Source: Escherichia phage JM17 | Reading direction: 5' to 3' (one strand) | Sequence record: PP400779 | DNA length: 64,000 bases | Shown here: piece by piece, positions 28,822 through 60,900 of the stretch | Numbering within the stretch: the first letter of the stretch is position 1 | Layout of the letters: each line of letters opens with the position of its first letter | The notes under the pieces: generated by a model | Told to the model about the DNA's origin: nothing | Database searches by the model: none | What the model saw: only the letters and a program-made list of their open reading frames with translations | Program-made: the position numbers and the translations under genes

Positions 28822-29343
28822 ATGGCACACTTTAACGAATGTTCACAACTTATTTCTGGTGTTGATAAAGCAGAAGAAGCTTATTTTAATGCTCTGATTC
28901 ACGAAGATAAAGACCCACTGCAGGTAATGCTTGATATGCAGAAATCTTTACAGGTTCGTCTGGCAAATGACAAGCCTGAACATAACAAACATCCTGATGA
29001 ATTGGCTACTGCTGGTGATGTTGTTGATTGGCTGCGTAATCAGAAAGATTATATTGATGATGAATTTCGTGAACTGCTGACTTCACTTGGCGGTATGAGC
29101 AATGGTGAAAAAGCTGCCAGCAGTGTATGGAAGCCGTGGAAGGCACAACACGCTGAATATCGAAATCGTCGTATCGATGAACTGTCTCCTGAAGACCAGC
29201 TTGAAATTAAATTTGAAATGATTGATATTCTGCATTTCGTTCTAAATATGTTCCAAGGTCTAGGACTTTCTGCTGAAGAAATCTTCAAACTGTATTATCT
29301 GAAAAACCAACACAACTTTGAACGTCAGGATAATGGTTACTGA
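28822..29343 (+). CDS. 56: dCTP pyrophosphatase gp56 (MazG-like)
   Basis: 173 aa from ATG 28822 (MAHFNECSQLISGVDKAEEAY...); all-helical MazG-like composition; position 61..56..soc. Confidence 0.7.
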   Translation: MAHFNECSQLISGVDKAEEAYFNALIHEDKDPLQVMLDMQKSLQVRLANDKPEHNKHPDELATAGDVVDWLRNQKDYIDDEFRELLTSLGGMSNGEKAASSVWKPWKAQHAEYRNRRIDELSPEDQLEIKFEMIDILHFVLNMFQGLGLSAEEIFKLYYLKNQHNFERQDNGY

Positions 29344-29349
29344 TTAAGT

Positions 29350-29357
29350 TATAAATA
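29350..29357 (+). promoter_or_regulatory. late promoter (TATAAATA)
   Basis: exact TATAAATA 32 nt upstream of soc start. Confidence 0.65.
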
Positions 29358-29388
29358 CACCTGTAATTAAACAACAAAGGAGTTAATT

Positions 29389-29625
29389 ATGGGTGGTTAT
29401 GTAAACATCAAAACCTTTACGCATCCTGCTGGTGAAGGTAAAGAAGTTAAAGGTATGGAAGTTTCTGTGCCGTTTGAGATTTATTCAAACGAACATCGGA
29501 TTGCAGATTCTCATTACCAAATCTTTCCATCAGAAAAGGCAGCTTATTCTACTGTAGTTTCTGATGCAGCTGACTGGAAAACTAAGAACGCTGCAATGTT
29601 TACCCCTACACCAGTAAGCGGTTAA
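29389..29625 (+). CDS. soc: small outer capsid protein Soc
   Basis: 78 aa; GYVNIKTF...HYQIFPSEKAAYSTV closely matches remembered T4 Soc; late promoter upstream. Confidence 0.85.
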   Translation: MGGYVNIKTFTHPAGEGKEVKGMEVSVPFEIYSNEHRIADSHYQIFPSEKAAYSTVVSDAADWKTKNAAMFTPTPVSG

Positions 29626-29634
29626 ATAATTTAA

Positions 29635-29661
29635 GGAATCCTTCGGGATTCCTTTTTTTTT
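29635..29661 (+). terminator. intrinsic terminator (UUCG hairpin + T9)
   Basis: ggaatcc-ttcg-ggattcc followed by ttttttttt. Confidence 0.7.
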
Positions 29662-29670
29662 GTTTCTACA

Positions 29671-29700
29671 GTTTACAACCACTAAAAACTGTGTTAAGAT
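29671..29700 (+). promoter_or_regulatory. early-type promoter
   Basis: gtttac 29671-29676, spacer 18, tgtgttaagat. Confidence 0.4.
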
Positions 29701-29728
29701 ATTTTTACTTACTCAAGAGGAGAACAAT

Positions 29729-29956
29729 ATGTTAAATCGTTGGATTAAACCTAATAACACATTAGGTGCTTTGATTGCTCAAGAAGTTTCGTTGAAATAC
29801 GGTCTTGGATATTACGATGATGTGGTCGTACACTCATTCATGATGGATGGTGAAGACGTCAAATTTAATGCCGAAATCCGTTGGGATGATGGTGGTGTTC
29901 GTTTTGTTCGAGGAACAATTAATGCTTACGATACTGAAGAAGTTGTTTGCTGTTAA
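29729..29956 (+). CDS. hypothetical protein (75 aa)
   Basis: ATG 29729 with caagaggagaacaat RBS. Confidence 0.35.
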   Translation: MLNRWIKPNNTLGALIAQEVSLKYGLGYYDDVVVHSFMMDGEDVKFNAEIRWDDGGVRFVRGTINAYDTEEVVCC

Positions 29957-29969
29957 ACCAGGCGAAGGT

Positions 29970-30158
29970 ATGATGCCTATTCCTGATACACACGAAAAAA
30001 GTTGGGAATATATCGGTGACGGAATGATGGAAGAAGTTGTTCGTCCTAAGTCTGCTTCAAGCTCTTCAAGTTATAATCATTCATACGTATCGTCTTGGCC
30101 TGGTGATTCTGGGTCAAGTTATTCTGATTGTGGTTCAAGCTCAGGGAGCTGCGAATGA
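29970..30158 (+). CDS. hypothetical protein with Ser-rich C-terminal tail (62 aa)
   Basis: ATG 29970 with gaagg RBS; C-terminus SASSSSSYNHSYVSSWPGDSGSSYSDCGSSSGSCE. Confidence 0.3.
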   Translation: MMPIPDTHEKSWEYIGDGMMEEVVRPKSASSSSSYNHSYVSSWPGDSGSSYSDCGSSSGSCE

Positions 30159-30334
30159 ACAGATTGGTAAGATGGTTTAAAAGCTGGGACGATGGTGTCG
30201 GTCCAGAAGATTGGCTGGATGTTCTTGAAGAGAATATGGCTAAAGAATTCCAGAAACACGAAGAAAAGCTCGTCGAAGATGAAGGCGAACGTATTGTAAA
30301 ACTTTATATGGGTGAACCATCGAGGAAATTATAA
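30155..30334 (+). CDS. hypothetical protein (59 aa)
   Basis: ATG 30155 overlapping upstream stop. Confidence 0.35.
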   Translation: MNRLVRWFKSWDDGVGPEDWLDVLEENMAKEFQKHEEKLVEDEGERIVKLYMGEPSRKL

Positions 30335-30798
30335 TGGATGCTATGTTATTTAAAATGTATTTGCTTGAAGCCAAGTCGTTTAAACATATACCAGTAGAAG
30401 ATAAGACTCCACTAGAAATAGCTATTCTCATTAACAAAAGTCTAAATAATCCGCAATATATCGTAGAAGAATTCTGCAAATTGCAGATTCCTAAAGGTTA
30501 CAAAATTCGTGTAGATCGAGTTGGAGCTATTACTCATTCTAAAAATTCTCCGTTTAGTCTTGAAGAAGGCATAAAGGACTTAGGTTATGAATCTACGGAA
30601 AATGCCGTTTATGTGAATCCTGAAAAGCGTTTAGACTTGTTTGAAAAGCGAGACCATAAGTATTTTGCCAAAAAATACTTTATTACATCATTAGCAGATT
30701 TAATCCATTTGCAACGAGCTATTTGGAAATTTTTTAAGACAAAAGGTGTAGCACTAGAAACATTCTCTGAACCTGCTAGTTTTTATTTAGGTGAATAA
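30334..30798 (+). CDS. hypothetical protein (154 aa; T4 mrh position)
   Basis: ORF; position between soc and Mod-like genes. Confidence 0.4.
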   Translation: MDAMLFKMYLLEAKSFKHIPVEDKTPLEIAILINKSLNNPQYIVEEFCKLQIPKGYKIRVDRVGAITHSKNSPFSLEEGIKDLGYESTENAVYVNPEKRLDLFEKRDHKYFAKKYFITSLADLIHLQRAIWKFFKTKGVALETFSEPASFYLGE

Positions 30799-30799
30799 T

Positions 30800-30988
30800 A
30801 TGGACCTTATGAGTATGTTTGACGAGCCTGAAGTTGAGGCTCCTAAAGTGCATCGTAGTGAACTTGTTGATGAACTAGATAGTATTATACAGCGTCATGG
30901 CTTTAGTTTACCATTAGATGTCCTGAAAGACCTCGCCTCTTATTATGATGACCCTCCACCATGGAGTCCTTGGAGTCCTTGGAAATGA
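30800..30988 (+). CDS. hypothetical acidic protein (62 aa) ending PPPWSPWSPWK
   Basis: ATG 30800; C-terminus encoded by 9-nt tandem repeat. Confidence 0.35.
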   Translation: MDLMSMFDEPEVEAPKVHRSELVDELDSIIQRHGFSLPLDVLKDLASYYDDPPPWSPWSPWK

Positions 30989-31148
30989 AAGAGAAATTGA
31001 AAGAGAAATTCTTACTAGAAATCAAGGAAAAAGACTTTGAGACATGGTATCGAATGGTGAAAGGGTTGACATTGCTTTTTAAAACATCCTTATTCATGTT
31101 AGAACAACCTGGTCCTGATGGACCTTTAGTAGGAAAGCTTAAAAAGTA

Positions 31149-31177
31149 GTTTACATTCCCTCCTCTCGTGTTATGAT
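31149..31177 (+). promoter_or_regulatory. early-type promoter
   Basis: gtttac 31149-31154, 17-nt spacer, tatgat 31172-31177. Confidence 0.5.
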
Positions 31178-31204
31178 AGGCTTATCTTTAAATGGAGGTC
31201 TATC

Positions 31205-31786
31205 ATGACATGTCAATCTGAACTTCAAGAACGTGAATACCTAACAAATCTGATTGATAGCAAATTCACCCGCCAAGAACAAAACATTCTCTGGGCTTGC
31301 ACCGATTCTAAGGAAGACCCGGATTTTCACTATGAATTAGACCATCTTGTTCGTAAGCATATGACTTCTACAGTACCAGTAGAACTCTACCGCGGTGTAA
31401 CTCCAGAAGAAGTAGAACGTCTTTCCCTTCTTTCTGTTGGATGCCATTGGTCTCCTGGACGAGTAACATCGTTCACAACTGATTTCAGTACAGCTCGTCA
31501 ATTCTCTGGGAGATGGGAATATCAGACGTACACTATTCTTAGTCTCAGGAATGCTCCATTCATTTTTGATTACTACCAAAACATGATTAACATTGTACTC
31601 GCCGGAAAGAACCCTAAGCATGTTATGGAAGAAACGCGTGTTGACGTCCTAGATATGATTGAATCTGAACAAGAGTACATGGTCTCAAGTATCTCTAGAT
31701 TTGAGATTGTGGAAATTGAAGAGTTAGAGTATGACCCTTTGTCTCGAGTATACAAAATCATTCATTTGAAAATGTTGAATTTTTAG
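31205..31786 (+). CDS. modB: ADP-ribosyltransferase, ModB-like
   Basis: 193 aa; R-S-ExE signature (LYRGV, SFTT, ESEQEYMV); paralogous to next gene; position as T4 modB. Confidence 0.6.
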   Translation: MTCQSELQEREYLTNLIDSKFTRQEQNILWACTDSKEDPDFHYELDHLVRKHMTSTVPVELYRGVTPEEVERLSLLSVGCHWSPGRVTSFTTDFSTARQFSGRWEYQTYTILSLRNAPFIFDYYQNMINIVLAGKNPKHVMEETRVDVLDMIESEQEYMVSSISRFEIVEIEELEYDPLSRVYKIIHLKMLNF

Positions 31787-31815
31787 TGTACAAACTCTAC
31801 AGACGATGATACTAT
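31786..31815 (+). promoter_or_regulatory. early-type promoter
   Basis: gtgtac(a) -35 variant, spacer 18, gatactata. Confidence 0.4.
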
Positions 31816-31843
31816 ACCTTTATCAACCAGAGGAGAAACCAAA

Positions 31844-32452
31844 ATGTTTATGCCGTATAACGAGTGTGAAATTGAAGAAATGGTTCGTCGTGCTCAAAAC
31901 CCTGAATATCAAGATGAATTGCAGTATGAAATTGATAGTCAATTCAGCGACATTGAACAAAGTGTCCTGTGGCAGTGTATGGAAAACAAGCCAGACTGTA
32001 TTCAACAGGAGTTAAGTTCAATCGTTCGTAGAAATTGGACGTCTTCTGTTCCTGAGACAATGTATCGTGGAATCTCTAAGAAAACTATGGCCACACTTGA
32101 TGATAAAGGCATTGGTAGTATTATTAAATTTGACAGAGTAATGAGCTTCAGCCCAGTGTTCGGTGTAGCACGTAACTTTGCTTCGTATAATTTTTACGGA
32201 ACATTTAATATGTTCTGCATCAAAGATGCACCATTTGCTTTCAACTTCCGTGAACATATGCTTAACATGATTCTGGCTGCGCCATCTTGTGAGTTCAATG
32301 GAGCTTTCCCTGAAGCGACAAGACGGTCTAATGCCAGACTTATATCCGACGAATGTGAATTTATGCTCCCTATAGGGACTACACTGCGTGTAGATTCTAT
32401 TATTCAAGATGGACGGTATACAATCTGGAATCTGTCTATTCTCGGTTACTGA
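31844..32452 (+). CDS. modA: ADP-ribosyltransferase, ModA-like
   Basis: 202 aa; MYRGI, SFSP, DECEFML (R-S-ExE); tandem paralog of 31205-31786. Confidence 0.6.
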   Translation: MFMPYNECEIEEMVRRAQNPEYQDELQYEIDSQFSDIEQSVLWQCMENKPDCIQQELSSIVRRNWTSSVPETMYRGISKKTMATLDDKGIGSIIKFDRVMSFSPVFGVARNFASYNFYGTFNMFCIKDAPFAFNFREHMLNMILAAPSCEFNGAFPEATRRSNARLISDECEFMLPIGTTLRVDSIIQDGRYTIWNLSILGY

Positions 32453-32605
32453 CTGAATTGGAATAACCGGATGGAACTCAGAACCATTATAACACATAAA
32501 AAATTAAAGCATTTTACGAAAAAAGAGTGTACACTACCTGAGGGCATGTTATTATAAGCTTATCAGCTAAATGACCTTAACGTCCGTAAGACAGAGGAAA
32601 ATATT

Positions 32606-33343
32606 ATGTTATCAAATAACAAAATCAATCGTCGTCTTGACCACACCAGAGCTTCTGCGAAGAGACGCTCTAAGGATTTTAACTTAGACTTTAATTACCT
32701 TAAAAACATTCTTGATCAAAAGGTCTGCGCTTACTCAGGTGAATCTTTTAATAACTCTGTTGAAGGTGAGAAATTATCCTTAGAACGTTTTAATAATGAT
32801 ATAGGCTACATTAAAGGTAATGTTATCCCAGTTAAGAAAAAATATAACACGGCTCGTTCTGATTTAACATTAGAAGAACTTATTGAGAAACGTGATGCCA
32901 TTGCAAGACGTATCGCTAATCCTTCTGCCCGTAAAGTAGAGAAACTTAATCTCGACGAGAAGAAATGGGCCCAAATTAAAAAGGTTTATGGTACTATTTT
33001 AAAAATCCGAGCAAAACGTGAAAATCGTGTTAAGCATATGGCGAACATGATGAAAAATCAACCTTTATCTAACGAATCTAAACTTAGAATTGTTGCTTTG
33101 AAAGCACGCATTAATGGCTCACATCAAGCAGAAGGCCATGAACTTACTAAACTCAACGTTCTTCTTAAAGGCTCTGACTGGAAAACTAAAACTAAATTAA
33201 CTGACGCTGAATCGCTTTTCGATACATATGATAAAGTTATCCAAGGTCTGCAACGTTTTGAAAAGATTAGTTTCATTGGTAAATTAAAATTGAAACGTGG
33301 CTTACCACTTAGCGCATCATTATTCCAACTGATTAAAGGTTAA
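32606..33343 (+). CDS. HNH_3-like domain protein (T4 srd position); endonuclease activity uncertain
   Basis: 245 aa; CAYSGESF...LSLERFNNDIGYIKGNVIPV resembles HNH_3 core but D-H replaced by E-R; K/R-rich C-term; native-like codon usage. Confidence 0.4.
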   Translation: MLSNNKINRRLDHTRASAKRRSKDFNLDFNYLKNILDQKVCAYSGESFNNSVEGEKLSLERFNNDIGYIKGNVIPVKKKYNTARSDLTLEELIEKRDAIARRIANPSARKVEKLNLDEKKWAQIKKVYGTILKIRAKRENRVKHMANMMKNQPLSNESKLRIVALKARINGSHQAEGHELTKLNVLLKGSDWKTKTKLTDAESLFDTYDKVIQGLQRFEKISFIGKLKLKRGLPLSASLFQLIKG

Positions 33344-33345
33344 TT

Positions 33346-33657
33346 ATGGTTTATGTATATGCAATAGTTTATCGAGATATGGAAGGATTTACTGTCCCGG
33401 TTCCACTTGATGAGCATCGTCCTGCAGTATTTTTTAGAAAGGATATTGCAGATAAAGTTTTCGATACTTTGAAAACACAGTATAAAACAGATTTAAAAAT
33501 GGGAGTTCTAAGAATGGTCGAAACTCCGCGTAAGTTCTGGTTTAATAAGCTTGAAATGAAACACGTTAAACTAGATGCGGAGACGCAAAGATTGTATCAA
33601 CGAATCCTGGACACAGGCCGTATTGTTAGTATTCCAATTGCAGGGACTTTACGATGA
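33346..33657 (+). CDS. hypothetical protein (103 aa)
   Basis: ORF immediately upstream of dda, overlapping its start. Confidence 0.4.
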   Translation: MVYVYAIVYRDMEGFTVPVPLDEHRPAVFFRKDIADKVFDTLKTQYKTDLKMGVLRMVETPRKFWFNKLEMKHVKLDAETQRLYQRILDTGRIVSIPIAGTLR

Positions 33658-34967
33658 CATTTGATGATTTGACTGAAGGCCAGAAAAACGCCTTCAACGT
33701 TGTTATGAACGCTATTAAAGAAAAGAAACATCACGTAACTATTAATGGGCCTGCTGGTACAGGTAAAACAACCCTTACTAGATTCATCGTTGAAGCCCTT
33801 ATTTCTTCCGGAGAATCAGGTATTATTTTAGCAGCCCCTACACATGCTGCTAAAAAGGTTCTAAGCAAACTTGCTGGTCAAGAAGCATCGACTATTCATA
33901 GCATTCTTAAAATCAACCCAACTACATACGAAGAAAATGTATTGTTTGAACAGAAAAAGGTTCCCGACTTAGCCTTGTGTCGTGTACTGTTATTTGATGA
34001 AGCGTCAATGTGCGACCGTTCTCTGTTTAAAATAATGTTAGCTAGTATCCCTAAATGGTGCACAGTAATTGGAATCGGCGACCGATGCCAGATTCGTCCG
34101 GTAGACCCAGGCGAATCAACTGCGTATCTAAGTCCTTTCTTCACTCACAAAGACTTCGTGCAATGCAACCTTACAGAAGTTAAACGTAGCAATGCACCAA
34201 TTATTGATGTTGCGACTGACATTCGTAATGGCAAATGGATTTACGATAAAGTAGTTGACGGGCATGGTGTTCATGGATATACAGACCTTAAATCGTATAT
34301 GACGAACTATTTTAACGTCGTTAAAACTCCTGAAGACCTTTTTGAAAATCGAATGATGGCATTCACAAATAAGTCGGTGGACAAGTTAAATTCAATTATT
34401 CGCCGAAAACTTCTTGAAACAGAAAAACCATTTATTAAAGACGAAGTCATTGTTCTACAAGAGCCATTTACTAAGACATATAAGCTAGATGGTAAAAATA
34501 TGACCGAAATGCTTTTCAATAACGGGCAATTCGTTCGTATTCGAGATGCTGTAGAAACGTCTACATTCGTTAAAGCACGTGGTGTTTCAGGCGAATATAT
34601 GATACGATACTGGAATCTTACAGTAGAAACATATGGGGATGATGAAGAATACATCCGCGAAGATATAAAGGTTATTTCTTCTGAAGAAGAGCTTTATAAA
34701 TTCAATTTGTTTTTGGCTAAGACCGCAGAAACATACAAATTTTGGAATAAAGGTGGTAAAGCTCCGTGGAGCGAATTCTGGGATGCTAAACGTATGTTCA
34801 CTAAGGTGAAGGCACTACCGGTATCAACCTTCCATAAGGCCCAGGGTATGTCTGTTGACACGGCCTTTGTTTATACACCGTGTATCCATTATGCTGATTC
34901 AGAATTAGCTAAACAGTTATTGTATGTCGGCACGACTCGTGGTCGGTTTGACGTCCATTTTATTTGA
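33654..34967 (+). CDS. dda: Dda DNA helicase (SF1B)
   Basis: 437 aa; Walker A GPAGTGKTT, LLFDEASM Walker B; length as T4 Dda. Confidence 0.85.
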   Translation: MTFDDLTEGQKNAFNVVMNAIKEKKHHVTINGPAGTGKTTLTRFIVEALISSGESGIILAAPTHAAKKVLSKLAGQEASTIHSILKINPTTYEENVLFEQKKVPDLALCRVLLFDEASMCDRSLFKIMLASIPKWCTVIGIGDRCQIRPVDPGESTAYLSPFFTHKDFVQCNLTEVKRSNAPIIDVATDIRNGKWIYDKVVDGHGVHGYTDLKSYMTNYFNVVKTPEDLFENRMMAFTNKSVDKLNSIIRRKLLETEKPFIKDEVIVLQEPFTKTYKLDGKNMTEMLFNNGQFVRIRDAVETSTFVKARGVSGEYMIRYWNLTVETYGDDEEYIREDIKVISSEEELYKFNLFLAKTAETYKFWNKGGKAPWSEFWDAKRMFTKVKALPVSTFHKAQGMSVDTAFVYTPCIHYADSELAKQLLYVGTTRGRFDVHFI

Positions 34968-34976
34968 GAGAAAATT

Positions 34977-35654
34977 ATGAGCACTGATGTTATTATAGAT
35001 TTTGAAACATTCGGCAATACATCAAAAGCGGCTGTTATTGACCTTGCGGTTATTGCATATAATTCCGACCCTGAAGTTGTTGAATCATTTGAAGAACTTG
35101 TTCAACGAGGTAAGCGAATTAAATTTAATTTAGCTTCTCAGAAAGGGAAGCGAGTTTTCGCTAAATCCACTATGAAATGGTGGAAAGAACAATCGGCTGA
35201 AGCGCGTAAAAACCTGGCTCCGTCTGAAGACGATGTCACTACGCTTGAAGGCATTAAAATCTTTTTAGATTATTGTCGAGCTAATAAAGTTGACCAATGG
35301 AAATCACAGATGTGGTGCCGTGGTATGAGCTTTGACTTCCCGATCTTGGTCGATTTGATTCGTGACCTCTATCGTGATGAAGGTGTTCTTGAACCAGATA
35401 TTGATACTGATAAATTAGAACCTGTTAAATTCTGGGCTCAACGTGATATTCGTACGGCAATCGAAGCTTACTCGTTGACACGAGGATTAAGTATGTGTCC
35501 ATTACCGATGGGTACGCTAAAAGGATTCGTTGCCCATGATAGTATTCATGATTGTGCTAAAGATATTTTGATGTTAAAATATGCTCAGCGTTATGCGCTT
35601 GGCCTTGAAGATGTCCCTGAGAATCCTGACCCGTTAAGTGTAAAACAGCGATAA
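34977..35654 (+). CDS. dexA: exonuclease A DexA (DEDD family)
   Basis: 225 aa; N-terminal IIDFETFG exo I motif; position after dda. Confidence 0.8.
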   Translation: MSTDVIIDFETFGNTSKAAVIDLAVIAYNSDPEVVESFEELVQRGKRIKFNLASQKGKRVFAKSTMKWWKEQSAEARKNLAPSEDDVTTLEGIKIFLDYCRANKVDQWKSQMWCRGMSFDFPILVDLIRDLYRDEGVLEPDIDTDKLEPVKFWAQRDIRTAIEAYSLTRGLSMCPLPMGTLKGFVAHDSIHDCAKDILMLKYAQRYALGLEDVPENPDPLSVKQR

Positions 35655-51754: not shown

Positions 51755-52414
51755 TTATTTAGCCCTTCCTAGTATTCGGATCGCTTGGTTGCATATAGCC
51801 GCTAAGCGATCTTCCTCAAGTATATTATTCCCCTTATACCAATACATCGTCACAGTTCCAGCATAGATGTTATCCAAATTAAAATATGGACAACTATACA
51901 TATAAGAAAGTTCGGCAGTCTTAGATTTTGTAGGCAAAAATGCAAATTCTGTTTTAGATGAGAAATGACGGCCACTTAAATGAATTATATATTCATTAGC
52001 CGTTTTATCCACTGGGAATCCGCCAAGGGACTTTTCAGAAATTGTGCTAGGTAGTTTGCCTTCATAAGCTATAAGGTCGACAAAATAATTTAAGTTTTTA
52101 GGTCTGAAAGAATACACAGCACTAAAATCTGCACCAGATGAGATATGAACTATTTGCAGTTGTTCTAGAGCCGCAGATTCAAAACGTAAAGCTCGTTCTT
52201 TTTGGATTATTTCAGTATAAGTATCATACTTAGCTCTTACATAATAATCCAGCAAAATACTTCCTTTGTACCATATTAGTGCCATTAGGAACAAAAGAAT
52301 AATTACCGCTACTCGGGACATTAAAACCTTTCCAGTAGCGTTATCTTTGAAAATACGATCTAGCAACCCAAATAGAATATCACTAGGCGAAAATGATACT
52401 TTTGGTGTTGCCAT
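51755..52414 (-). CDS. t: holin T
   Basis: 219 aa; MATPKVSFSPSDILFGLLDRIFKDNATGKVL...CPYFNLDNIYAGT closely matches remembered T4 holin. Confidence 0.9.
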   Translation of the reverse strand: MATPKVSFSPSDILFGLLDRIFKDNATGKVLMSRVAVIILLFLMALIWYKGSILLDYYVRAKYDTYTEIIQKERALRFESAALEQLQIVHISSGADFSAVYSFRPKNLNYFVDLIAYEGKLPSTISEKSLGGFPVDKTANEYIIHLSGRHFSSKTEFAFLPTKSKTAELSYMYSCPYFNLDNIYAGTVTMYWYKGNNILEEDRLAAICNQAIRILGRAK

Positions 52415-52423
52415 AATACCTCC

Positions 52424-52975
52424 TTACTTAAAGATATTTATAATCGCTTTGATAATAGATTTGTTTTCAAGGTCAGGGAATTTAGGGAATTCGCCGCCAA
52501 GATGTTCATGTTTTTCTAAAAGGGCAAAGAATTTTTTGAGCTCTTTAAATTTTCGTTTTTCTTCTCTATTAGCAACCTCTGCGTCAATAAGAGAACTTAA
52601 AACACTGAATAATTTATAGAGTTCATGAATTTTCTTATCACGTTGAACTACGCGTTTATATGCTTCATCTTCCTTCCACCCGTCGTCGGTCCAAATGTCA
52701 AATTCACCAGGTTCTTCTGTAGTAACATTTTGAAGAGCACCTGGAGTGTCAATAACAATTTTTTGCTTATCATAAGTCCATACTGTTTTTCCACGATGGT
52801 CTTCAACATATACCCATTCTTTTTCGCGTTCATCAAATACAACAGCATAGCCTTCTTTAGGGTCTAAAGGTTTTTTAGATGTCGAGTGAGCCGGAAGACC
52901 GAGGCCTTTAACCGGTTTGTAATTTTCTTCTTTGTAAAATTCTTTAGTGTCAAAATAATAATGATATATTTTCAT
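52424..52975 (-). CDS. 38: gp38 (T4-type tail-fibre assembly protein)
   Basis: 183 aa, same length as T4 gp38; follows gene 37; split-SD hairpin in its initiation region. Confidence 0.7.
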   Translation of the reverse strand: MKIYHYYFDTKEFYKEENYKPVKGLGLPAHSTSKKPLDPKEGYAVVFDEREKEWVYVEDHRGKTVWTYDKQKIVIDTPGALQNVTTEEPGEFDIWTDDGWKEDEAYKRVVQRDKKIHELYKLFSVLSSLIDAEVANREEKRKFKELKKFFALLEKHEHLGGEFPKFPDLENKSIIKAIINIFK

Positions 52976-53005
52976 ATTTAGAAGGGGCCGAAGCCCCTCT
53001 CCTTA
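52976..53005 (-). promoter_or_regulatory. translation initiation region of gene 38 with UUCG hairpin between SD and AUG
   Basis: minus strand reads taaggaga-ggggc-ttcg-gcccc-ttctaaat-ATG; SD about 23 nt from AUG unless hairpin forms. Confidence 0.55.
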
Positions 53006-56000
53006 TGCTAAACGAACGATATAGTTAAAAGCAATGTTTTTAACCGTGTTTTCTGTATTACCTGTACTATTTACAGTGATAGTATGACCATGCGAGCCAA
53101 TTGCTACCGAGTGAGTATGAGCACCAATACCTACAGTATGTGTATGGGCACCAATACCTACAGTATGCGCGTGGTTACCCGTAGAGCTAGTAGTACCAGA
53201 CCAAGAGTGTGTATGGTTACCTTCTGTAGATGACTTTGCAATATATTGGCTTGAACCAGGCACGACACCGTTGCTTAGGCCAAAACCAACAACCTGGTTT
53301 CCACTAATTAGAGTAGACCCATTAGGAAATATCCCTGTTGGTTGATTATTAGGACCCCTTGGACCGGTTTGTGAGTGCTGGTGGTTACCTGCTGCACCAG
53401 TAGTACCGCTTACTGTATGGTTATGGTTACCTGTTGTATTGCTAGTCTTCGTACCATAATCAAAGCTTGAAGAGGTTTTAGTACCATAATCAAAACTTGA
53501 TGTGTTTTTAGTACCCAAATCTGTGCTTGATGCACTTGCACTATGGCTATGTGACTTAACACCATCTGCTTCTGTACTTAATACAGCACGCCCAGATGGT
53601 TTACCCTTGATAGTTTGACCACGCATATCCGGAATAGTACCAGTAGGATATGCAACAGCCAATTTTGGGTATGCAGACTTATCAAAAGTCTGTCCTTCCA
53701 TAATAGCGTAACCTTCAGGAGGTGTATCAGTAGGCCAAGGAATCGGAGCACCAATTGGGTAACTCGACACAATATCTGTCTTAAGGTTATTTATTGTGGT
53801 ATTCAAGTTAGCAAAATTACCAGTGCCGCCAGTGATGTTACCATCAGTACCGAATTGAGCATTACCAACTTTTAATGGTTTTGAAAAAAGAACATCGTCG
53901 GTTCTAAATGCAACCCCATGACCTAATGCATTACTATATAAGTTAAGTTCATCTGAACTACCACTCCCATTACCAACGAACCATTTAACCGTATTAGCTT
54001 TTTTACCCTGAATATAAACAGGGTTGGTCGATGAAACCGAGTTAATAATAAGCGCGGCGTTATTAGCGTTAATTGTGATAGCTTGCCCTGATGTTGTTCT
54101 ACTAGTTTCTACTTTAAATCTTCCACCGCCGATATCAACATCATGATCCATGGAAACTTTACCATCACTTAATGTAATATAGAACGGACGTAAATTAGAA
54201 ATACCACCTGATTCACCAGCATTCTGTGGAGTTGGAATAATATAAAGCTTATCTTCAGAACGACGGAAAATAGCCCCGTATTCAGCATTCCAAATTCTTA
54301 ATGCATCAGCTGTTCCGCCGATTTTAACTTGCCCGGTAATAGAAGAACCACCTTGGACAAACAAACCGTTAGACATAGTAACATTGCCACCAAAAGAACC
54401 TGTACCGGAGGCACTTATATTACCAAGGCCTATGATATGGCCTGTTTCGACAGTTCCGTTAAATTTAAAGTTAACCGGACCTACTGTTTCACCAGAAGCC
54501 GGGTTGGTACGTTGAGCATAAAAATAATAACCATGCCCGTCAGCTAATTCAAAAACTGTTTCACGAGTACGATCGCCAGATGCGTTAAATGAATTACCCC
54601 ACGCTTTAATAGATACATAACTTTTATTCTGACCTGCGCGAGTACCACCAGCCCACAGTATAGTTTTAGTGCCATCTGTTGTTGTAGGAGCGTCAAGTTG
54701 AATACCGTCGGGTCTAGCACCAGTAAGAACTAATCCATTATCAAATTTAATTCTTTGTATTGAAGATACTGTTCCGTCGGCATAAAACTGTACATTATTA
54801 GAACCAGTTACCAGTTTCAAAATACCCGGGTTAACTTCCATACCTTCTTGTGTATTAATGTTGGTTTGGCCTTTACCGCGGAAATAGTGGGACATTTTCC
54901 CGCCTGAGTTATAGCCAATATGCGTCTGGCCGTCTCCAGCAGTGTTTTCATCAGCTTGTGTTTGAACCGATAAAAACGCGGCGTTGGTTCCAGGCATAAT
55001 CCATGTTGTACCTTGGTCCTCGGAACGACCAAAAATCGCTTTACGGGTACTACGGAAACTATAAGGAGTAATAGATGCGACAGAATTCCCTGAACCAACT
55101 AAATCATAAACACCGGTTTTTTTGTATGATAGCCCCGTCCCGTTATCGCCTAGAGCTAAATAAACACCGAATCCTAAAGCGGCACCATTACCATAGTCGC
55201 TTGACGGGTATCCTGCAGTCACGGTCCCGATGGCTATGCTATTGCGGACGATCATTCGGCCGTCATTACGAATACCATATAATTTAAATGATGGTGTATT
55301 ACCAGTCCACCAAGAAACTTCATCAGCCTGGTCTGTTTGTGCAGTAACAATTTCATGATACATTGTACCACCGGATTTAGCTCGCACTTTACGAAGATAG
55401 TTTACACCATTCGTTTCACCGGTTCCAGGATAAACATAGTTAACCAAAGATTGTGAATCATATTGTCCAAATGATTTAGAATCATGATTAATTAAATTAA
55501 CACTAATAGTTGGTGTACTAATAGAAGTTAAAGCAGTTAATTTGCGTGCCTGGAAGATACCGCCATCAGTAGAAATGAAATGAAATTCTGAATTTTGAGC
55601 TTCCGCAGCGGTTCCTTGACGAACACGCATTGTAATTACGCCTTCATTTTCAGACTGCGGGTTTGAATATAAAACGCCACGTTCTGAGCCATTTGTATTT
55701 TCAAACCAAAGATGGGCCTTTGCAGTATCATTTATTGCTCTTGTATAAAATGAACCGGATGTTGATCTGAATACTGTAGCAGAAACAATATTACTTGCCG
55801 TAATAGTACCACTTGTAGAAAAATTTCCAAAGTTGTTTATTGGTCCATTGACGCGTAAAGTTCCATCAATAGTTACATTTCCATCAATTTGACCGCCTTT
55901 AGCAATACCTAGATCAATGATATTTCCTGTATCATCTTTAGTAAAAATTGTTCTATCTTTTAAGTTTATAGCCAATTCACCTTCGGCTAATACTGAAGCA

Positions 56001-56059
56001 GCAGGACGTGCACCTGCGGTTTTGCTTCTTTTAAATTGTATTTGTTTTAAAGTAGCCAT
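53003..56059 (-). CDS. 37: distal long tail fibre subunit gp37 (receptor-binding)
   Basis: 1018 aa; Gly/Ser/Thr-rich beta composition; C-terminal His-box repeats (GAHTHT); synteny 34-35-36-37-38. Confidence 0.85.
53093..53174 (-). repeat. tandem 27-nt repeats encoding His-box units near the gp37 C-terminus
   Basis: units gcaccaatacctacagtatgtgtatgg / gcaccaatacctacagtatgcgcgtgg plus a degenerate copy; encode VGIGAHTHT-type repeats. Confidence 0.7.
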
Positions 56060-56067
56060 AAGTCCTC

Positions 56068-56733
56068 TTAATAATAGCCGAAATCTTGAACAGAATCCTT
56101 AATTACGATTTGGTCGAAACGAGGAACGTGATTAGCCTCAGACGCCGGATTCTGTGAGAAAAAGTTTGGTGCTGTTAAAGTACCAGTCATGGTATCGCCT
56201 TTACGCAATACACGGGAATTTGCGTTATCCGTAACAATATTTATTCGTCCATCAACATAGTCCTTTCTAGTAAGGTCATTCGCTGCTATAGGAGCAGACA
56301 TATCGCTTCTTACTTGTCCTGAAGCAGATACAACGCCTTTTGTATTAATATCACCATTACGTGTATTGATTACTACAGTTCTACCCGCTGTTCCTTGTGA
56401 TGATTTAAAACCAATACCATACCATGAAACAATATCAATATTTGCTGTAACAAAAGTAGCTGCATCACCATTACCTGGATAAATACCAGATTGATTTGTA
56501 TTGTTTATAGCATATGGTATTTGAACACCGCCGTTAAATGTTACCTTTGATGCATAAGTACCACCATTAGCTTTAGAAACGAAATCGTTATCAGCAGCTT
56601 GTGGTTTATTATATTCTGAATAGAGTTTAAACGTTTTATACAGGACGTCATCACCTGCTGGCATTAAAGGGAAATTACCTTGATGCCATATAACAGCACC
56701 GCCAGTTGTACTACCAGCTTTTAAATCGGCCAT
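56068..56733 (-). CDS. 36: tail fibre protein gp36
   Basis: 221 aa, same length as T4 gp36; late promoter upstream. Confidence 0.75.
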
Positions 56734-56757
56734 AGTTGTCTCCTTATATGTATACCA

Positions 56758-56765
56758 TATTTATA
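56758..56765 (-). promoter_or_regulatory. late promoter (TATAAATA) for gene 36
   Basis: plus-strand tatttata = minus TATAAATA about 25 nt upstream of gene 36 ATG. Confidence 0.6.
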
Positions 56766-56772
56766 CAAAAAT

Positions 56773-56790
56773 GGGAGACCGAAGTCTCCC
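56773..56790 (-). terminator. UUCG hairpin terminator after gene 35
   Basis: minus strand gggagac-ttcg-gtctccc followed by auuuuug. Confidence 0.55.
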
Positions 56791-56795
56791 TAAAT

Positions 56796-57923
56796 TTATT
56801 CTGATGCTTCTTTAAATTCTTGTCCAAATACCTTACCAGTATCAGTTGAAGATTGAGTAGGTAGTGTCATTATGTCTGGAGTATTTAAAGATTCTGAAAC
56901 ATAATTTACACGAATACCATTTATACCAAACTCAGCAGGTTTTGAAACGCTTCCATTACATGATACTTCAGTGAATATAACGTTTCTTAATCCGCCTTGC
57001 CCGACTGGGGCCGTACGATAACAATAAATCGTGAACCCGTCAGCACCGGCAGGAATTTCTATGTAGTCTTCATATATCTTCCATTCACCTGCAGCCCCAT
57101 CAAAGTTTGTATCCTTAAATGAAATAGGTGAAGTAGAAGGAGATTTAAAGAAACGAATAGAAAGTCGTGTCGTCCCTTGTGCTAACAAATCGGCATCGGC
57201 CATTAGTTGGAATTTCATATAAAGGAAATCTCCAGGCTTCAATTTATACCCAGCGAGAGGTGTAATAACGGACGTTGTAGGCATCCTTTTAATTTCATTA
57301 TTAGTACCTCCAACAACAGATAAAAATGTGTCTGTCGATTCGTACGTACGACTAGGGAAGCCGGTAGCACCAATATCATCGATCGTGTCGTACACAACAT
57401 CAAGTGGTGTACTATAGTCGGTTGAAGTTTTCTTATTACTATACTTAATATGTTCTAGTGCTATAGCATTCTTACCAGAAATATAAAATGCCGAATAAGA
57501 AATGTCCACTATATTTAAAACTTGTTGAGCTAATGGAATAGAAGAACTTCCGGCTTTATTAAACCATGCAAGAACTTCTGGCGGAAAGTTTGTTTTAGCG
57601 TTAGTAACAAGAGCAAATATAAAATTTGAAGCATATGTGTCCATGAAAGTAACAAATGCACTTGACGTGGCGTCGTTTTCAGTAGAGAAATTATATGTCT
57701 TAGATTCAACTACTGCACCCGTTGTAGGATTTATTACACGAACGTTTAATCCAACGGAAAAAACCTGGGACCCAAGTGGATTATCCTGGAACTTAATATA
57801 AGCAGGAGATGTTGATAGCGGGCAAGAGCCCGCTATGCTTAATTTAAATCGTACTGAATTGCTTTCCGATAAAAATGGCGTTTGGACGTATCCTTGTCCA
57901 AACTTAGCCATAAATTTTTCCAT
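56796..57923 (-). CDS. 35: tail fibre hinge protein gp35
   Basis: 375 aa (T4 gp35 is about 372 aa); position between 34 and 36. Confidence 0.75.
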   Translation of the reverse strand: MEKFMAKFGQGYVQTPFLSESNSVRFKLSIAGSCPLSTSPAYIKFQDNPLGSQVFSVGLNVRVINPTTGAVVESKTYNFSTENDATSSAFVTFMDTYASNFIFALVTNAKTNFPPEVLAWFNKAGSSSIPLAQQVLNIVDISYSAFYISGKNAIALEHIKYSNKKTSTDYSTPLDVVYDTIDDIGATGFPSRTYESTDTFLSVVGGTNNEIKRMPTTSVITPLAGYKLKPGDFLYMKFQLMADADLLAQGTTRLSIRFFKSPSTSPISFKDTNFDGAAGEWKIYEDYIEIPAGADGFTIYCYRTAPVGQGGLRNVIFTEVSCNGSVSKPAEFGINGIRVNYVSESLNTPDIMTLPTQSSTDTGKVFGQEFKEASE

Positions 57924-57931
57924 AATACCTC

Positions 57932-60900
57932 TTATTCAATCCACTCGAATTTAACAGATTTATTCACAGGGTCTGGAATAATGCGGACATTACCAATCCT
58001 TAAGAAATCCCTTATTGTCAAGTTTCCGATTGTTGCATTATCAGAAGGTAAAGCACCAATATCAGATGGCTGAGGAGGGTTACCCCCATCAAATACTTGA
58101 ACAAAACTTGACCAAGAATTTTTAGTTTTCTGCCATGTACGAGTCCAACGGGTTGTACGTGCTTCTGGAGTTGTTGGATAAGTAATCCAATCTTGGTAAA
58201 GTGAATCAAGTGTGTTACCAAACTGAGTCAATGTACCAGGAGATTTAACTTCTTCGCCACGTTCTAAGTATGGAAGCCCAGTCACTTCATTAGTTTTTTC
58301 AACCATTTTAAAATAACCTGGGAACTGGTTATAAGTGGCTGAATCGTTAATATCAATTGACCAGAATCCTACATTATCAGATGTTGGCGCACGGGTATAT
58401 AAATCGGATGTTTTAGTACCCTGAGAACGAATTCTCGAGTTAACAGTCAAACCGCCAGAATTTATAGTAGCACCATTGGCAATGATTAAGCCTTCACCAA
58501 TTGTAATCTGACCGGATTGGTTATTAATTGATAATGGACGTAATCCATTAAATCCACCGGTCTGATCACCTGATGCAGTAAGCATAAAATATGTGCTGCC
58601 TCCATCATTGCGAATAAAGAATCCGTAATCACCACTAATTGCTCTGAAAGCATTTGCAGACTTGCTAATGAATTCGCCATTGGCTGTAACTGAACGACCA
58701 AATGTTGCAACGCCATTCGCATTTAACGTGCCTGAAGCGTTAACATTTATTGGCATCACAGTACCATTGATACTAAACGTTATATTCCCGGCTTTATTAC
58801 GTTGAGAATAAAAGTGATTAGATGTTTCATCGCCAACTTCAAATACAGTAGAACGTGTTGTATCTGAACCATCACCAAATTCATTTCCACAAACTCTGAT
58901 AGTCATCGTCTGTGCCGGGTTAGTTCCAGTTTGAGGTCCTTTCTCAAAAATCAGACGAGTTGCCGTTCCAGTATTAGAAATAGTTAATGTACTATTTGCC
59001 GAAACTGAACCACCAAACGTAGCAGTACTAGTTGATACAAGAGGGGCACTCAGATTCGTTTGTTGGGTTAAGGTTAGTGAACCATTAACCGTCTGTGCAA
59101 TGTCCCTACGAATGAACTGAGATGAATCTAGGCCATCTAATAAATTTGCGTCAGCAGCTTTTGCTTTTAATGGCAAATAGTTAGCAAGTACACGGTTTAA
59201 TTCATATGGAGAAATAGCATAACTATTTTTTTCATATGATTCTAAAGGTTGTGTTGAACCAACTGTATCATTACCAACGAATGTAATTGAACCAGATGAA
59301 GTTTTAACAAAACCTCTTATTGCAGTAGTAGCAGCCCATGTCGGTTCATTCTGGACAATCCATTTTAAATTCTTAGGAGATACAGCAGTATTAGCAGAAG
59401 TTCCTGTTACAGTTTCAGCCTGAGTAGCAACCTTAATTACGCCTTCAGACGTTTCAGTGGACTTAGTCCCTAAAAGCTTTTTAGGAGTAATAAGAACATC
59501 ATCTAAAGTTCCTGCATTAGATTCTGCTTGGGTCGCTACACGAAGTGTACCACGTTGTGTTTCATTTGCTTTAGAAATATCAAGAGTATAATGGTTCCAC
59601 AAGGTTCCTTCTTCAATAAGTCCGGAATCAGAATTAACACTGGTACGGTCAGAAGAATCAAAATGAGTTTTAATTTTCAGTGGAGTTGAGATACGAGTAT
59701 CGTCAGTTCCAGTATCAAATTCAACTTGCGTAGCAAGTTCGGCTATGCCGGATAATCCTTCCGTAGCTTTCCTATCATTTAACGTCTTAGGCGTTACTGC
59801 ACGTGTATAATCAGTCCCAGCATTAGTTTCTGTTTGCGTAGCAATTTCAATTAAACCAATACGTCCATCAGTAGAAGTTTTCTTATGTAGTGTTTCAGGA
59901 GTTACTACAGCGTGAGAATAACCTGCTTGTGATTGACCAGCAATTACTTCACTATCAACAGCTAAAATTACTGCACCTTGTTGAGCATAAGTTGCTTTAT
60001 ATTGGTCAAGGGCTTTAGGAGAAATAGTTAAATTATTTACGGTTTTATTATAAACGTTAGTGCCTGCAGCACCACGAGTTTCAGCAGGAGTAGCAGAAGT
60101 AGTTGATACATATTTAACTATACCTGATAGTGTTTCAGAACCCTGACGTGCCTGCAATTTCTTAGGTGTAATAATCGTTGTGTCATCAAGACCAGCATCG
60201 GTTTCGGCCTGAGTAGCAATTTCTGCAAGACCGCGACGAGTTTCAGTTGCTGTACGCTCATTTAGTTTTTTAGGCGTAACAATAGTATCGTCCACAAATG
60301 ATGCTGTGGAATTCTGGTTAACTTGTGCTGTTGTAGCAATTTTAGCGATACCACGTCGAGCTTCAGTTGCTGTACGATTTGCCAACGTTTCAGGAGTAAT
60401 AGCCACTTCTTTAGCTGGAGTATTCTCTAAATCAACATTTGCTTGCGCTTGAGTAGCAAGAGCAATAACACCTAAACGAGCTCGTGTAGCATCAGTTCCA
60501 GCATCAACACGTTCTACAGTTGGGACGTTTTGTTGAACAACCCAATAACGTGTACCAGCAACGGTGTCTTCGATATACGCTAATTCTAATACAGGAACAT
60601 ATGAAGTAGTGCCATTGAATTCTAGTTCAGTAACAGAGACCCATTGAGCATCAGGTGGATATTCAGAACGTTTAGGGAACTGAAGCAATGCAACAGAAGA
60701 AGCAATTGTATCACCTTCGGCAGCTTTAATTTTTACTGTTTGGCCTTTACGCATGTAGTTCATTGAAATTTTAACAGTGTCACCACTCAAAATTCCGGAA
60801 GGCAGCGTAAGATTAATAGTTCCGGCTGTACCGTTATTTGTGCCAAAAATAAGAACTTCTTCATTTGGTCGAATATTTGAATCCGCACGGATAATACGAA

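Follow-up and report, generated by a model that had tools for sequence, protein, structure and literature searches.

A tandem pair of predicted Mod-family ADP-ribosyltransferase genes in the RB69-like Escherichia phage JM17

Two adjacent genes of Escherichia phage JM17 (sequence record PP400779) most probably encode active, early-expressed ADP-ribosyltransferases of the Mod family, a reading to which we give a probability of about 88%, and of which the activity and the early timing are the parts that we infer. Each gene would encode a stand-alone, arginine-specific mono-ADP-ribosyltransferase of ~23 kDa belonging to the R-S-ExE clade. The genes lie in a stretch of 64,000 nucleotides that was analyzed as a whole and is referred to here as the window. 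A previous inspection of the letters alone had described two adjacent ORFs of 193 and 202 amino acids (aa), and the ORF list gives exactly these two, which we call ORF1 and ORF2 (Table 1). They are separated by 57 nt.

The window is part of the genome of a Mosigvirus (RB69-like T-even phages of E. coli), and the 4.7-kb locus is 98% identical at the nucleotide level to annotated Mosigvirus genomes. By nucleotide comparison, 152 records cover at least 80% of this locus. The matching Mosigvirus records label the two genes "modB ADP-ribosylase" and "RNA polymerase ADP-ribosylase" and have the order soc-mrh.2-...-mrh-modA.2-x-modB-modA-srd-dda.1-dda-dexA, which equals that of T4 (mrh-modA.2-modB-modA-srd-dda.1-dda). 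The ORF pair occupies the conserved early-region position between mrh/modA.2 and srd-dda.1-dda, with the same gene order and flanks in T4, Mosigvirus, and Dhakavirus, and matches in Pfam and PHROG (T4_MRH, Srd, Phage_Y01A, and Dda SH3) confirm the neighboring genes. ORF1 and ORF2 are the modB-position and modA-position genes of an RB69-like T-even phage of the genus Mosigvirus. This gene pair is already known, with modA/modB-type annotation in more than 100 near-identical phage genomes, and the sequence-only reading that singled it out is correct but ordinary. Two antisense ORFs (32018-32497 and 31337-31621), having no credible family match and no minus-strand promoter motif, were set aside as spurious. 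Across the whole window, scans for Rfam families and tRNAs gave no match.

Table 1. Features of the locus, with positions counted from the first nucleotide of the window
Feature	Position	Strand	Basis or details
Predicted T4-early-type sigma-70 promoter before ORF1	31149..31177	+	Motif class, conservation
Elements of the ORF1 promoter	-35 GTTTAC 31149-31154; TGn 31169-31171; -10 TATGAT 31172-31177	+	A-rich sequence upstream
Shine-Dalgarno GGAGG (contains GGAG)	31194..31198	+	6 nt before ORF1 ATG; read from sequence
ORF1 (193 aa), predicted ModB-position ADP-ribosyltransferase	31205..31786	+	ATG start; homology, motifs, fold
Candidate catalytic residues of ORF1	R63 31391-31393; S89 31469-31471; E155 31667-31669; E157 31673-31675
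Predicted T4-early-type promoter before ORF2	31786..31815	+	Same motif class
Elements of the ORF2 promoter	-35 GTGTAC 31786-31791; TGa; -10 TACTAT 31810-31815	+
Shine-Dalgarno GAGGAG (contains GGAG)	31830..31835	+	8 nt before ORF2 ATG; read from sequence
ORF2 (202 aa), predicted ModA-position ADP-ribosyltransferase	31844..32452	+	ATG start; homology, motifs, fold
Candidate catalytic residues of ORF2	R75 32066-32068; S101 32144-32146; E170 32351-32353; E172 32357-32359
Third predicted early-type promoter, upstream of srd	32527..32555	+	GTGTAC ... TGt TATTAT
srd	32606-33343		PHROG 1400, E 2e-99

Family membership, candidate active-site residues, and predicted fold

The products had been described as tandem, ModB/ModA-like paralogous ADP-ribosyltransferases, with alignment to T4 ModA and ModB proposed as the check. 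We ran this alignment and found significant homology, with the active-site residues in register. By BLASTP, ORF1 matched T4 ModB at 38% identity (91 bits, E = 8e-28) and T4 ModA at 27% identity (43 bits, E = 4e-10), and ORF2 matched T4 ModB at 30% identity (106 bits, E = 1e-33) and T4 ModA at 30% identity over the full length (73 bits, E = 6e-21). The paralogy held as well, ORF1 and ORF2 being 33% identical over 147 aa (BLASTP, E = 2e-27). PHROG 832, "RNA polymerase ADP-ribosylase," matched both ORFs (E = 1e-38 and 1e-37), and the precomputed Pfam entry PF26816 was present on 33/33 database homologs. Given PHROG 832, hundreds of phage homologs, and low dN/dS, neither is a chance ORF. In the local copy of Pfam-A, neither ORF matched any family at E <= 0.1, including ADPrib_exo_Tox, and NCBIfam had no match for either. 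Because NCBIfam also misses T4 ModA and ModB themselves, we attribute these null results to library coverage and do not count them as evidence against membership.

ORF1 carries the motifs L61-Y-R63-G-V, S89-F-T-T, and E153-S-E155-Q-E157-Y-M-V, and ORF2 carries M73-Y-R75-G-I, S101-F-S-P, and D169-E170-C-E172-F-M-L. The motifs quoted in the sequence-only reading are therefore present in both, but the Ser-x-Ser that it ascribed to each is found in ORF2 only (S-F-S), with S-F-T in ORF1. T4 ModB, an active enzyme, likewise carries S-F-T. None of the 35 aligned family members varies at R, G, S, E, or E. R63/S89/E155/E157 of ORF1 and R75/S101/E170/E172 of ORF2 align with R73/S99/E171/E173 of ModB and R72/S96/E163/E165 of ModA, and the invariant G is in register with ModB G74.

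The primary mutagenesis paper is reportedly that of Tiemann et al. in 2004. We cite the essential T4 residues through later papers, in which ModB R73A,G74A and ModA E165A are catalytically dead mutants (PMC10468400, PMC11404850). In ModB, R73 is the NAD-binding residue and E173 the catalytic residue (bioRxiv 10.1101/2025.07.11.664405). By analogy, NAD+ would be bound by the conserved Arg (R63 in ORF1, R75 in ORF2) together with the Ser of S-x-S/T (S89 and S101), and catalysis would fall to the second Glu of E-x-E (E157 and E172). The first Glu (E155 and E170) may confer arginine specificity, as in the R-S-ExE clade. In the literature searched, we found no biochemistry of the Mosigvirus Mod proteins.

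AlphaFold2 models (pLDDT 89.4 for ORF1 and 94.2 for ORF2) predict a C3/iota/VIP2-type ADP-ribosyltransferase fold for both proteins. When either model was compared with the PDB by Foldseek, the top 50 matches were all R-S-E ADP-ribosyltransferases (E ~7e-6, TM ~0.5), those of ORF2 including C3bot, CDTa, iota Ia, XopAI, Vis, and Tre1. A BFVD search with the model of ORF2 gave a TM of 0.86 to a T4-type ModA (phage Sf22) and 0.85 to a ModB (Serratia phage CBH8). Sequence and profile searches of the PDB found no solved structure for any Mod family member. Sequence matches to nucleophosmin (E = 0.02) and trigger factor (E = 0.4) were rejected as chance level, and a sub-threshold profile match to XopAI near the E-x-E strand (E = 0.13) agrees with the fold result.

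The R-S-E fold is shared with C3bot, iota Ia, CDTa, VIP2, Certhrax, HopU1, XopAI, Tre1, and Vis, and the C3/C2-type toxins and effectors have, like the window proteins, an E/Q-x-E catalytic motif followed by a beta-strand. However, they are 7-18% identical to the window proteins, with TM ~0.5 and no ADPrib_exo_Tox match at E <= 0.1, and they are secreted and act on other targets (actin, Rho, FtsZ, and others). As judged from the predicted models, the resemblance to Pfam ADPrib_exo_Tox and the VIP2-C3 toxins is at the fold level only. T4 Alt is another R-S-E clade ADP-ribosyltransferase of the same phage group that also modifies Arg265 of RNA polymerase alpha (PMC2988021), but Alt is large, is packaged in the virion, and falls in a separate family, Alt/VIP2 (PMC9503650). 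An Alt model was only a distant structural match to that of ORF2 (rank 48, TM 0.46).

Predicted promoters and early expression

The claim that each gene has its own early promoter is borne out at the level of sequence, as both predicted sites belong to a strand-exclusive T4-early motif class. This class has 16 sites on the + strand of the window and 0 on the - strand (0.86 +/- 0.87 in shuffles), and for 14/16 an ATG ORF starts 26-72 nt downstream. The pattern was composed after seeing the sites at this locus, and it is the 13 other strand-exclusive sites that validate the class.

The ORF1 site (GTTTAC-N14-TGt-TATGAT) begins with the T4 early promoter -35 consensus GTTTAC (PMC1524935; consensus also from PMC2988021). 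In a generic sigma-70 scan it matched at 10/12 with TG, the best promoter-like site in 29300-35200, and it is kept in Mosigvirus L001/L007, with counterparts ahead of modB in JS10 and T4. The ORF2 site (GTGTAC-N15-TGa-TACTAT) fits the consensus less well, at 8/12, and falls below the threshold of the generic scan; its -35 element shares its first base with the end of the ORF1 stop codon. The site is kept in Mosigvirus L001/L007, and Dhakavirus JS10 has it too, as TTTAC...TGgTACTAT. In T4, modB and modA overlap by ATGA, and for this reason no promoter of the ORF2 type precedes modA. No intrinsic terminator was predicted on the + strand between ORF1 and ORF2. In the proposed scheme, host sigma-70 RNA polymerase would transcribe both genes immediately after infection, each from its own T4-early-type promoter, and ORF2 would probably also be reached via read-through from the ORF1 promoter.

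Relationship to T4 ModB and ModA and alternative readings

T4 ModB (NP_049636, 207 aa; UniProt P39423) belongs to the same PHROG 832 family as the window proteins, is of the same size, and has the same R-G / S-F-T / E-x-E register. As with ORF1, its gene comes first in the pair and follows modA.2; it has an early promoter, which for ORF1 is predicted, and a Shine-Dalgarno sequence containing GGAG. It differs in being just 30-38% identical to the window proteins, in a segment from the PF-x-F strand to E-x-E that is 5-8 residues longer, and in being nearer to the single-copy mod genes of other genera than either window protein. T4 ModA (NP_049635, 200 aa; UniProt P39421) is like ORF2 in being second of the pair and directly upstream of srd, in having R72/E163/E165 in register, and in the model similarity given above. 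Unlike ORF2, which stands apart from its partner and has a predicted promoter, T4 modA overlaps modB and has none of its own, and ModA represents a divergent lineage. The nearest annotated pair outside the genus is ModB/ModA of Dhakavirus JS10 (ACL78243, ACL78242), at 62% identity for ORF1 and 58% for ORF2. This pair belongs to another genus and is known from annotation, but its order, spacing (~55 nt), and three predicted promoters are the same as in the window.

One-to-one correspondence of ORF1 with ModB and of ORF2 with ModA is weakly supported, by gene order and weak sequence signals and with weak support from phylogeny. The best match of T4 ModA in Mosigvirus genomes is at the ORF2 position, and of the two clade HMMs, that of ORF2 gave T4 ModA 95 bits and that of ORF1 31 bits. 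A ModA relative at 60% identity (P0051) had JS10 ModA and ORF2 as its next-best matches, and at 28 clade-discriminating sites ModA sided with ORF2 by 10:5 and ModB with ORF1 by 8:4. ORF1 clustered with JS10 ModB in 100% of bootstraps and nested among single-copy ModB-like genes in both the small and the broad trees. In the small and broad trees, ORF2 grouped with ModA in 40% and ~20% of bootstraps, respectively, and for ORF1 with ModB the values were ~16-33% across the two. The broad tree (neighbor joining, 52 sequences including distant representatives) was unstable, with T4 ModA pulled toward the distant ones, and for this reason we draw no conclusion on orthology from it, for or against.

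It is conceivable, though at well under even odds, that both proteins are active Mod enzymes that do not correspond one to one with T4 ModB and ModA and that divide their targets in another way, either through independent duplications or through one old duplication followed by different subfunctionalization. For example, ORF2 could have kept ModB-like translation targets and ORF1 could have gained others. Several results point in this direction: both ORFs score higher against T4 ModB than against ModA (91 versus 43 bits and 106 versus 73 bits), T4 ModB itself prefers the ORF2-clade HMM over that of ORF1 (124 versus 89 bits) and is most like single-copy mod genes (175 bits), and T4-type ModA (>=73% identity) is confined to Tequatrovirus, with all others <=35% identical. 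Gelderlandvirus, Karamvirus, and Jiaodavirus have a single mod gene, 57% of bootstrap trees have a split with the two T4 proteins on one side and the four Mosigvirus/Dhakavirus proteins on the other, and ORF2 has a predicted promoter that T4 modA lacks. However, the common gene order and flanks and the ModA-lineage signals that favor ORF2 argue for correspondence. Furthermore, ORF1 and ORF2 formed an exclusive clade in 1% of bootstraps of the broad tree, so the duplication is old and not lineage specific, and the odd placement of T4 ModA, which sits on a long branch of unstable position, looks like long-branch behavior. A functional difference between the Mosigvirus/Dhakavirus pair and T4 ModB/ModA is likewise a tentative proposition: ORF2, which has a predicted promoter of its own and stands nearer than ORF1 to T4 ModB, and the derived ORF1 lineage may divide host targets in another way than in T4, and the same may hold for which of them, if either, carries out RNAylation.

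A main role in counter-defense for one or both proteins, through ADP-ribosylation of host immunity or toxin proteins and not reprogramming of transcription and translation, appears improbable. In its favor, the ADP-ribosyltransferases of phages are regarded as conflict proteins that evolve fast (PMC9503650), one anti-CRISPR, AcrIF11, is an ADP-ribosyltransferase (PMC12421852), and one Mosigvirus, phiC120, has a clean in-frame deletion of ORF1, as expected of an accessory gene. But neither ORF has a PADLOC match, and the known experimental targets of the family are RNA polymerase alpha and translation proteins only (PMC2988021, PMC3014915, PMC10468400). The dN/dS values against close relatives (0.11 for ORF1 and 0.12-0.15 for ORF2) indicate purifying selection and, on the time scale covered, do not point to an arms race. 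The phiC120 deletion, together with the S-F-T of ORF1 in place of S-x-S and its shorter segment ahead of E-x-E in the alignment, could also be taken to mean that one paralog is a catalytically dead pseudoenzyme or a decaying duplicate. We consider this very unlikely, as both proteins retain R, S, E-x-E, and every other residue that is invariant in the family, the S-F-T of ORF1 has its match in active T4 ModB, both genes are under purifying selection, both folds are predicted with high confidence, and ORF1-type genes are kept across Mosigvirus and Dhakavirus.

Predicted targets and significance

Our preferred reading remains a pair of active, early-expressed Mod enzymes whose modification of host proteins would contribute to phage takeover of gene expression. 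T4 ModA ADP-ribosylates Arg265 on both RNA polymerase alpha subunits (PMC2988021), and T4 ModB acts on ribosomal protein S1, EF-Tu, and trigger factor and is also able to join NAD-capped RNA to S1 and L2 (PMC3014915, PMC10468400), specificities that are established for T4 ModA and T4 ModB only. From gene order and the weak sequence signals, ORF2 would act like ModA on Arg265 of both alpha subunits, and ORF1 would act like ModB on S1, EF-Tu, and trigger factor, also placing NAD-capped RNA onto S1/L2. We lean toward this division of labor, in which RNA polymerase alpha would fall to ORF2 and the translation factors and RNA attachment to ORF1. The earlier suggestion that divergence between the paralogs means different targets is a reasonable inference by analogy with T4, beyond what can be read from the letters.

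As a discovery the pair carries little weight, since many published Mosigvirus genomes label these genes as modA/modB-type ADP-ribosylases and work on the family in T4 goes back decades. Outside Tequatrovirus, the labels "RNA polymerase ADP-ribosylase" and "ModB" for individual paralogs rest more on gene order than on sequence. The window variants, ~30-38% identical to the T4 enzymes, could therefore help to define RNA polymerase alpha versus S1/L2 specificity and the ability to carry out RNAylation. A second, modest point is the regulatory layout, which is unlike that of T4 in that ORF2 has its own predicted early promoter. If the pair is indeed not equivalent to ModB/ModA, the T4 paradigm would fail to generalize even among the T-even phages of E. 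coli.

Setting and integrity of the two genes

The modB-position gene (ORF1) and modA-position gene (ORF2) lie in a 4.7-kb region that shares 97.7-98.5% identity across its entire length with numerous sequenced phages of Escherichia and Shigella, with at least 80% of the locus covered in 152 records. In the annotated Mosigvirus record LR027383 (Straboviridae, Tevenvirinae), the order runs 56, soc, mrh.2 and, further on, an mrh-like modulator of heat-shock transcription, modA.2, a small ORF, "modB ADP-ribosylase," "RNA polymerase ADP-ribosylase," srd, dda.1, dda, and dexA. T4 shares the order modA.2, modB, modA, srd, dda.1, dda, and Pfam and PHROG matches independently confirm the flanking genes in the window (table). 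Mosigvirus genome annotations include a 54-aa ORF between modA.2 and ORF1 (30985-31149; PHROG 5790, unknown function), which has no T4 counterpart at that position.

Features of the mod region and early-type promoter motifs
Feature	Coordinates	Strand	Basis
mrh neighbour	30334-30798		Pfam T4_MRH match
ORF1	31205-31786	+	mechanical ORF list, 193 aa
ORF2	31844-32452	+	mechanical ORF list, 202 aa
srd neighbour	32606-33343		PHROG Srd match, E 2e-99
dda.1 neighbour	33346-33657		Pfam Phage_Y01A match
Dda neighbour	33654-34967		matches to Dda helicase families
Putative promoter before ORF1	31149-31177	+	early-type pattern
Putative promoter before ORF2	31786-31815	+	early-type pattern
Putative promoter before srd	32527-32555	+	early-type pattern
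Early-type motifs (16)	13, 24046, 24480, 25051, 29672, 31150, 31787, 32528, 36619, 37198, 45826, 46338, 48906, 49495, 51419, 61850	+	pattern search

The two tandem genes proposed by the sequence-only reading match the mechanical ORF list exactly, and they are paralogs (33% identity over 147 residues, E 2e-27). The motifs it quoted are present in both, as L61-Y-R63-G-V, S89-F-T-T, and E153-S-E155-Q-E157-Y-M-V in ORF1 and M73-Y-R75-G-I, S101-F-S-P, and D169-E170-C-E172-F-M-L in ORF2. The description of a shared Ser-x-Ser motif does not hold for ORF1, which carries S-F-T, as does active T4 ModB.

Compared with a 98%-identical relative, ORF1 carried 11 synonymous against 5 non-synonymous differences (dN/dS 0.11), and the corresponding counts for ORF2 were 6 and 3 (dN/dS 0.12); for ORF2 against Escherichia phage phiC120, the counts were 31.5 and 22.5 (dN/dS 0.15). 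These ratios fall within the range of neighbouring genes and, small as the counts are, all agree, consistently indicating purifying selection on both genes. In phiC120 itself, also a Mosigvirus (KY703222, 2492-2626, corresponding to window 31215-31670), ORF1 bears a clean in-frame 447-nt deletion between repeats of the 9-mer AATCTGAAC, one at window 31215-31223 and the other at 31662-31670. The 44-aa remnant is without the Arg and Ser motifs, and ORF2 is intact. Unless the deletion is an assembly artefact, phage propagation apparently does not require ORF1.

Elsewhere in the window, the sole long block of minus-strand ORFs (51755-61807; 219, 183, 1018, 221, 375, and 1291 aa) has sizes and an order that recall its possible T4 counterparts, the long-tail-fibre genes 38-37-36-35-34.

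Family membership, active site, and predicted fold

PHROG 832, "RNA polymerase ADP-ribosylase," matched both proteins (E 1e-38 and 1e-37), and PF26816 was present in precomputed Pfam annotation of 33/33 database homologs. Neither protein matched the local Pfam-A copy or NCBIfam; NCBIfam was also blank for T4 ModA and ModB, which therefore points to a coverage gap. By BLASTP, ORF1 was 38% identical to T4 ModB (91 bits) and 27% to T4 ModA (43 bits), and ORF2 was 30% identical to each (106 and 73 bits, respectively).

When the two proteins were aligned with T4 ModB and ModA, the R, S, and E-x-E columns were invariant and in register: R63/G64, S89, E155, and E157 in ORF1; R75/G76, S101, E170, and E172 in ORF2; R73/G74, S99, E171, and E173 in ModB; and R72/G73, S96, E163, and E165 in ModA. 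The same residues were invariant among 35 family members. Catalysis is lost in ModB R73A,G74A and in ModA E165A (PMC10468400; PMC11404850), and ModB R73 and E173 are described as the NAD-binding and catalytic residues (bioRxiv 10.1101/2025.07.11.664405).

PDB sequence and profile searches found no solved structure of any Mod family member, and the same 2025 preprint describes ModB as likewise without one. AlphaFold2 models based on 35-sequence alignments were of high confidence, with pLDDT 89.4 and pTM 0.84 for ORF1 and pLDDT 94.2 and pTM 0.88 for ORF2. For each model, the best 50 Foldseek matches in the PDB were all R-S-E ADP-ribosyltransferases (E ~7e-6, TM ~0.5), including Certhrax, iota Ia, CDTa, C3bot, VIP2, HopU1, XopAI, Tre1, and Vis. 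Among predicted viral structures, the ORF2 model matched ModB of Serratia phage CBH8 (TM 0.85) and T4-type ModA of Shigella phage Sf22 (full-length TM 0.86).

Homology, residue register, and predicted ART fold all support the earlier reading of these proteins as ModB/ModA-type ADP-ribosyltransferases, and they belong to the Mod family of the R-S-E clade (named in PMC9503650). The finding is correct and already known, with the function annotated for these genes in many public records. The family is small, with 132 clusters (50% identity) among 1.84 billion representatives at E <= 1e-3 and 43 at E 1e-10. In the representative library, several short Mod-like stretches also occur inside proteins of 1,000-4,285 aa (P0059, P0069, P0070, P0072, P0074, and others), candidates for multidomain proteins of the polyvalent or toxin type.

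Paralog identity and proposed roles

The mod pair was found in Tequatrovirus, Mosigvirus, and Dhakavirus, and a single gene at the same position in Gelderlandvirus (Melville), Karamvirus, and Jiaodavirus (Mineola). ORF1 grouped with ModB of Dhakavirus phage JS10 at 100% bootstrap, nested among the single-copy genes, and ORF2 grouped with JS10 ModA at 76%. An exclusive ORF1-ORF2 clade appeared in only 1% of bootstraps, and the duplication is therefore old. T4 ModA is harder to place, joining the ORF2 clade at 40% bootstrap in a small tree and being drawn toward distant sequences in a broader one. T4-type ModA is confined to Tequatrovirus, and its top match in Mosigvirus genomes is at the ORF2 position; for a homolog 60% identical to ModA (P0051), the next-best matches were JS10 ModA and ORF2. 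T4 ModA scored 95 bits against an HMM of the ORF2 clade, 31 against that of the ORF1 clade, and 90 against that of the single-copy genes. At 28 clade-discriminating positions, ModA sided with ORF2 (10:5), and ModB (8:4) and the single-copy genes (14:7) sided with ORF1. Against equating ORF2 with ModA and ORF1 with ModB, T4 ModB outscores ModA for both ORFs and scores higher on the ORF2 clade (124 bits) than on the ORF1 clade (89 bits). We put at roughly 60-65% the probability of one old duplication, in which the single-copy/ModB lineage persists as the upstream gene and the downstream gene represents the ModA lineage, the latter diverging very fast in Tequatrovirus. This assignment is too uncertain for target specificity to be carried over with confidence.

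For proteins with intact NAD-binding and catalytic residues, an ART fold (AlphaFold2), selection, and early-promoter and Shine-Dalgarno signals, all seen here, targets and effects can be proposed by analogy with T4. T4 ModA ADP-ribosylates Arg265 of both RNA polymerase alpha subunits, abolishing UP-element and CRP interactions (PMC2988021), and the ModA-type enzyme would likewise modify host alpha. The ModB-type enzyme would modify translation proteins and attach NAD-capped RNA: T4 ModB targets S1, EF-Tu, and trigger factor (Arg45) (PMC3014915) and couples S1 and L2 to NAD-capped RNAs; when it is inactivated, burst size falls and lysis is delayed (PMC10468400).

Putative early promoters and translation signals

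T4-type early promoters have GTTTAC at -35, together with TGn and a -10 element (PMC1524935; PMC2988021). A generic sigma-70 scan gave its regional best at 31150-31177 (TTTACA-16-TATGAT with TG, 10/12) and called no site before ORF2. The pattern T[TG]TAC-N14-16-TGn-TAnnnT, written after seeing the ORF1, ORF2, and srd sites, occurred 16 times on the + strand of the window and never on the - strand (block shuffles, 0.86 +/- 0.87), and for 14 of them an ATG ORF of 40 codons or more begins 26-72 nt downstream. The 13 further sites and the strand exclusivity establish the class as real. The ORF1, ORF2, and srd motifs are all kept in JS10 and in two further Mosigvirus genomes, so that the claim of a separate early promoter for each gene has support from the sequence. 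T4 differs because its modB and modA overlap by ATGA, leaving promoters only in front of modB and srd. No + strand terminator is predicted between ORF1 and ORF2, and transcription from the ORF1 promoter is therefore likely to continue into ORF2 as well. A hairpin with a perfect 9-bp stem and a trailing T-run (29633-29654), terminator-like on both strands, directly follows soc (29389-29625) and directly precedes the motif at 29672.

The Shine-Dalgarno sequences at 31194-31198 and 31830-31835 both contain GGAG, as does the T4 modB leader. GGAG is the motif cut by T4 RegB endoribonuclease in early mRNAs, and both genes may be subject to RegB-mediated shut-off. More broadly, the 16 early-type motifs can be used directly as a map of where early transcription units may lie in JM17.
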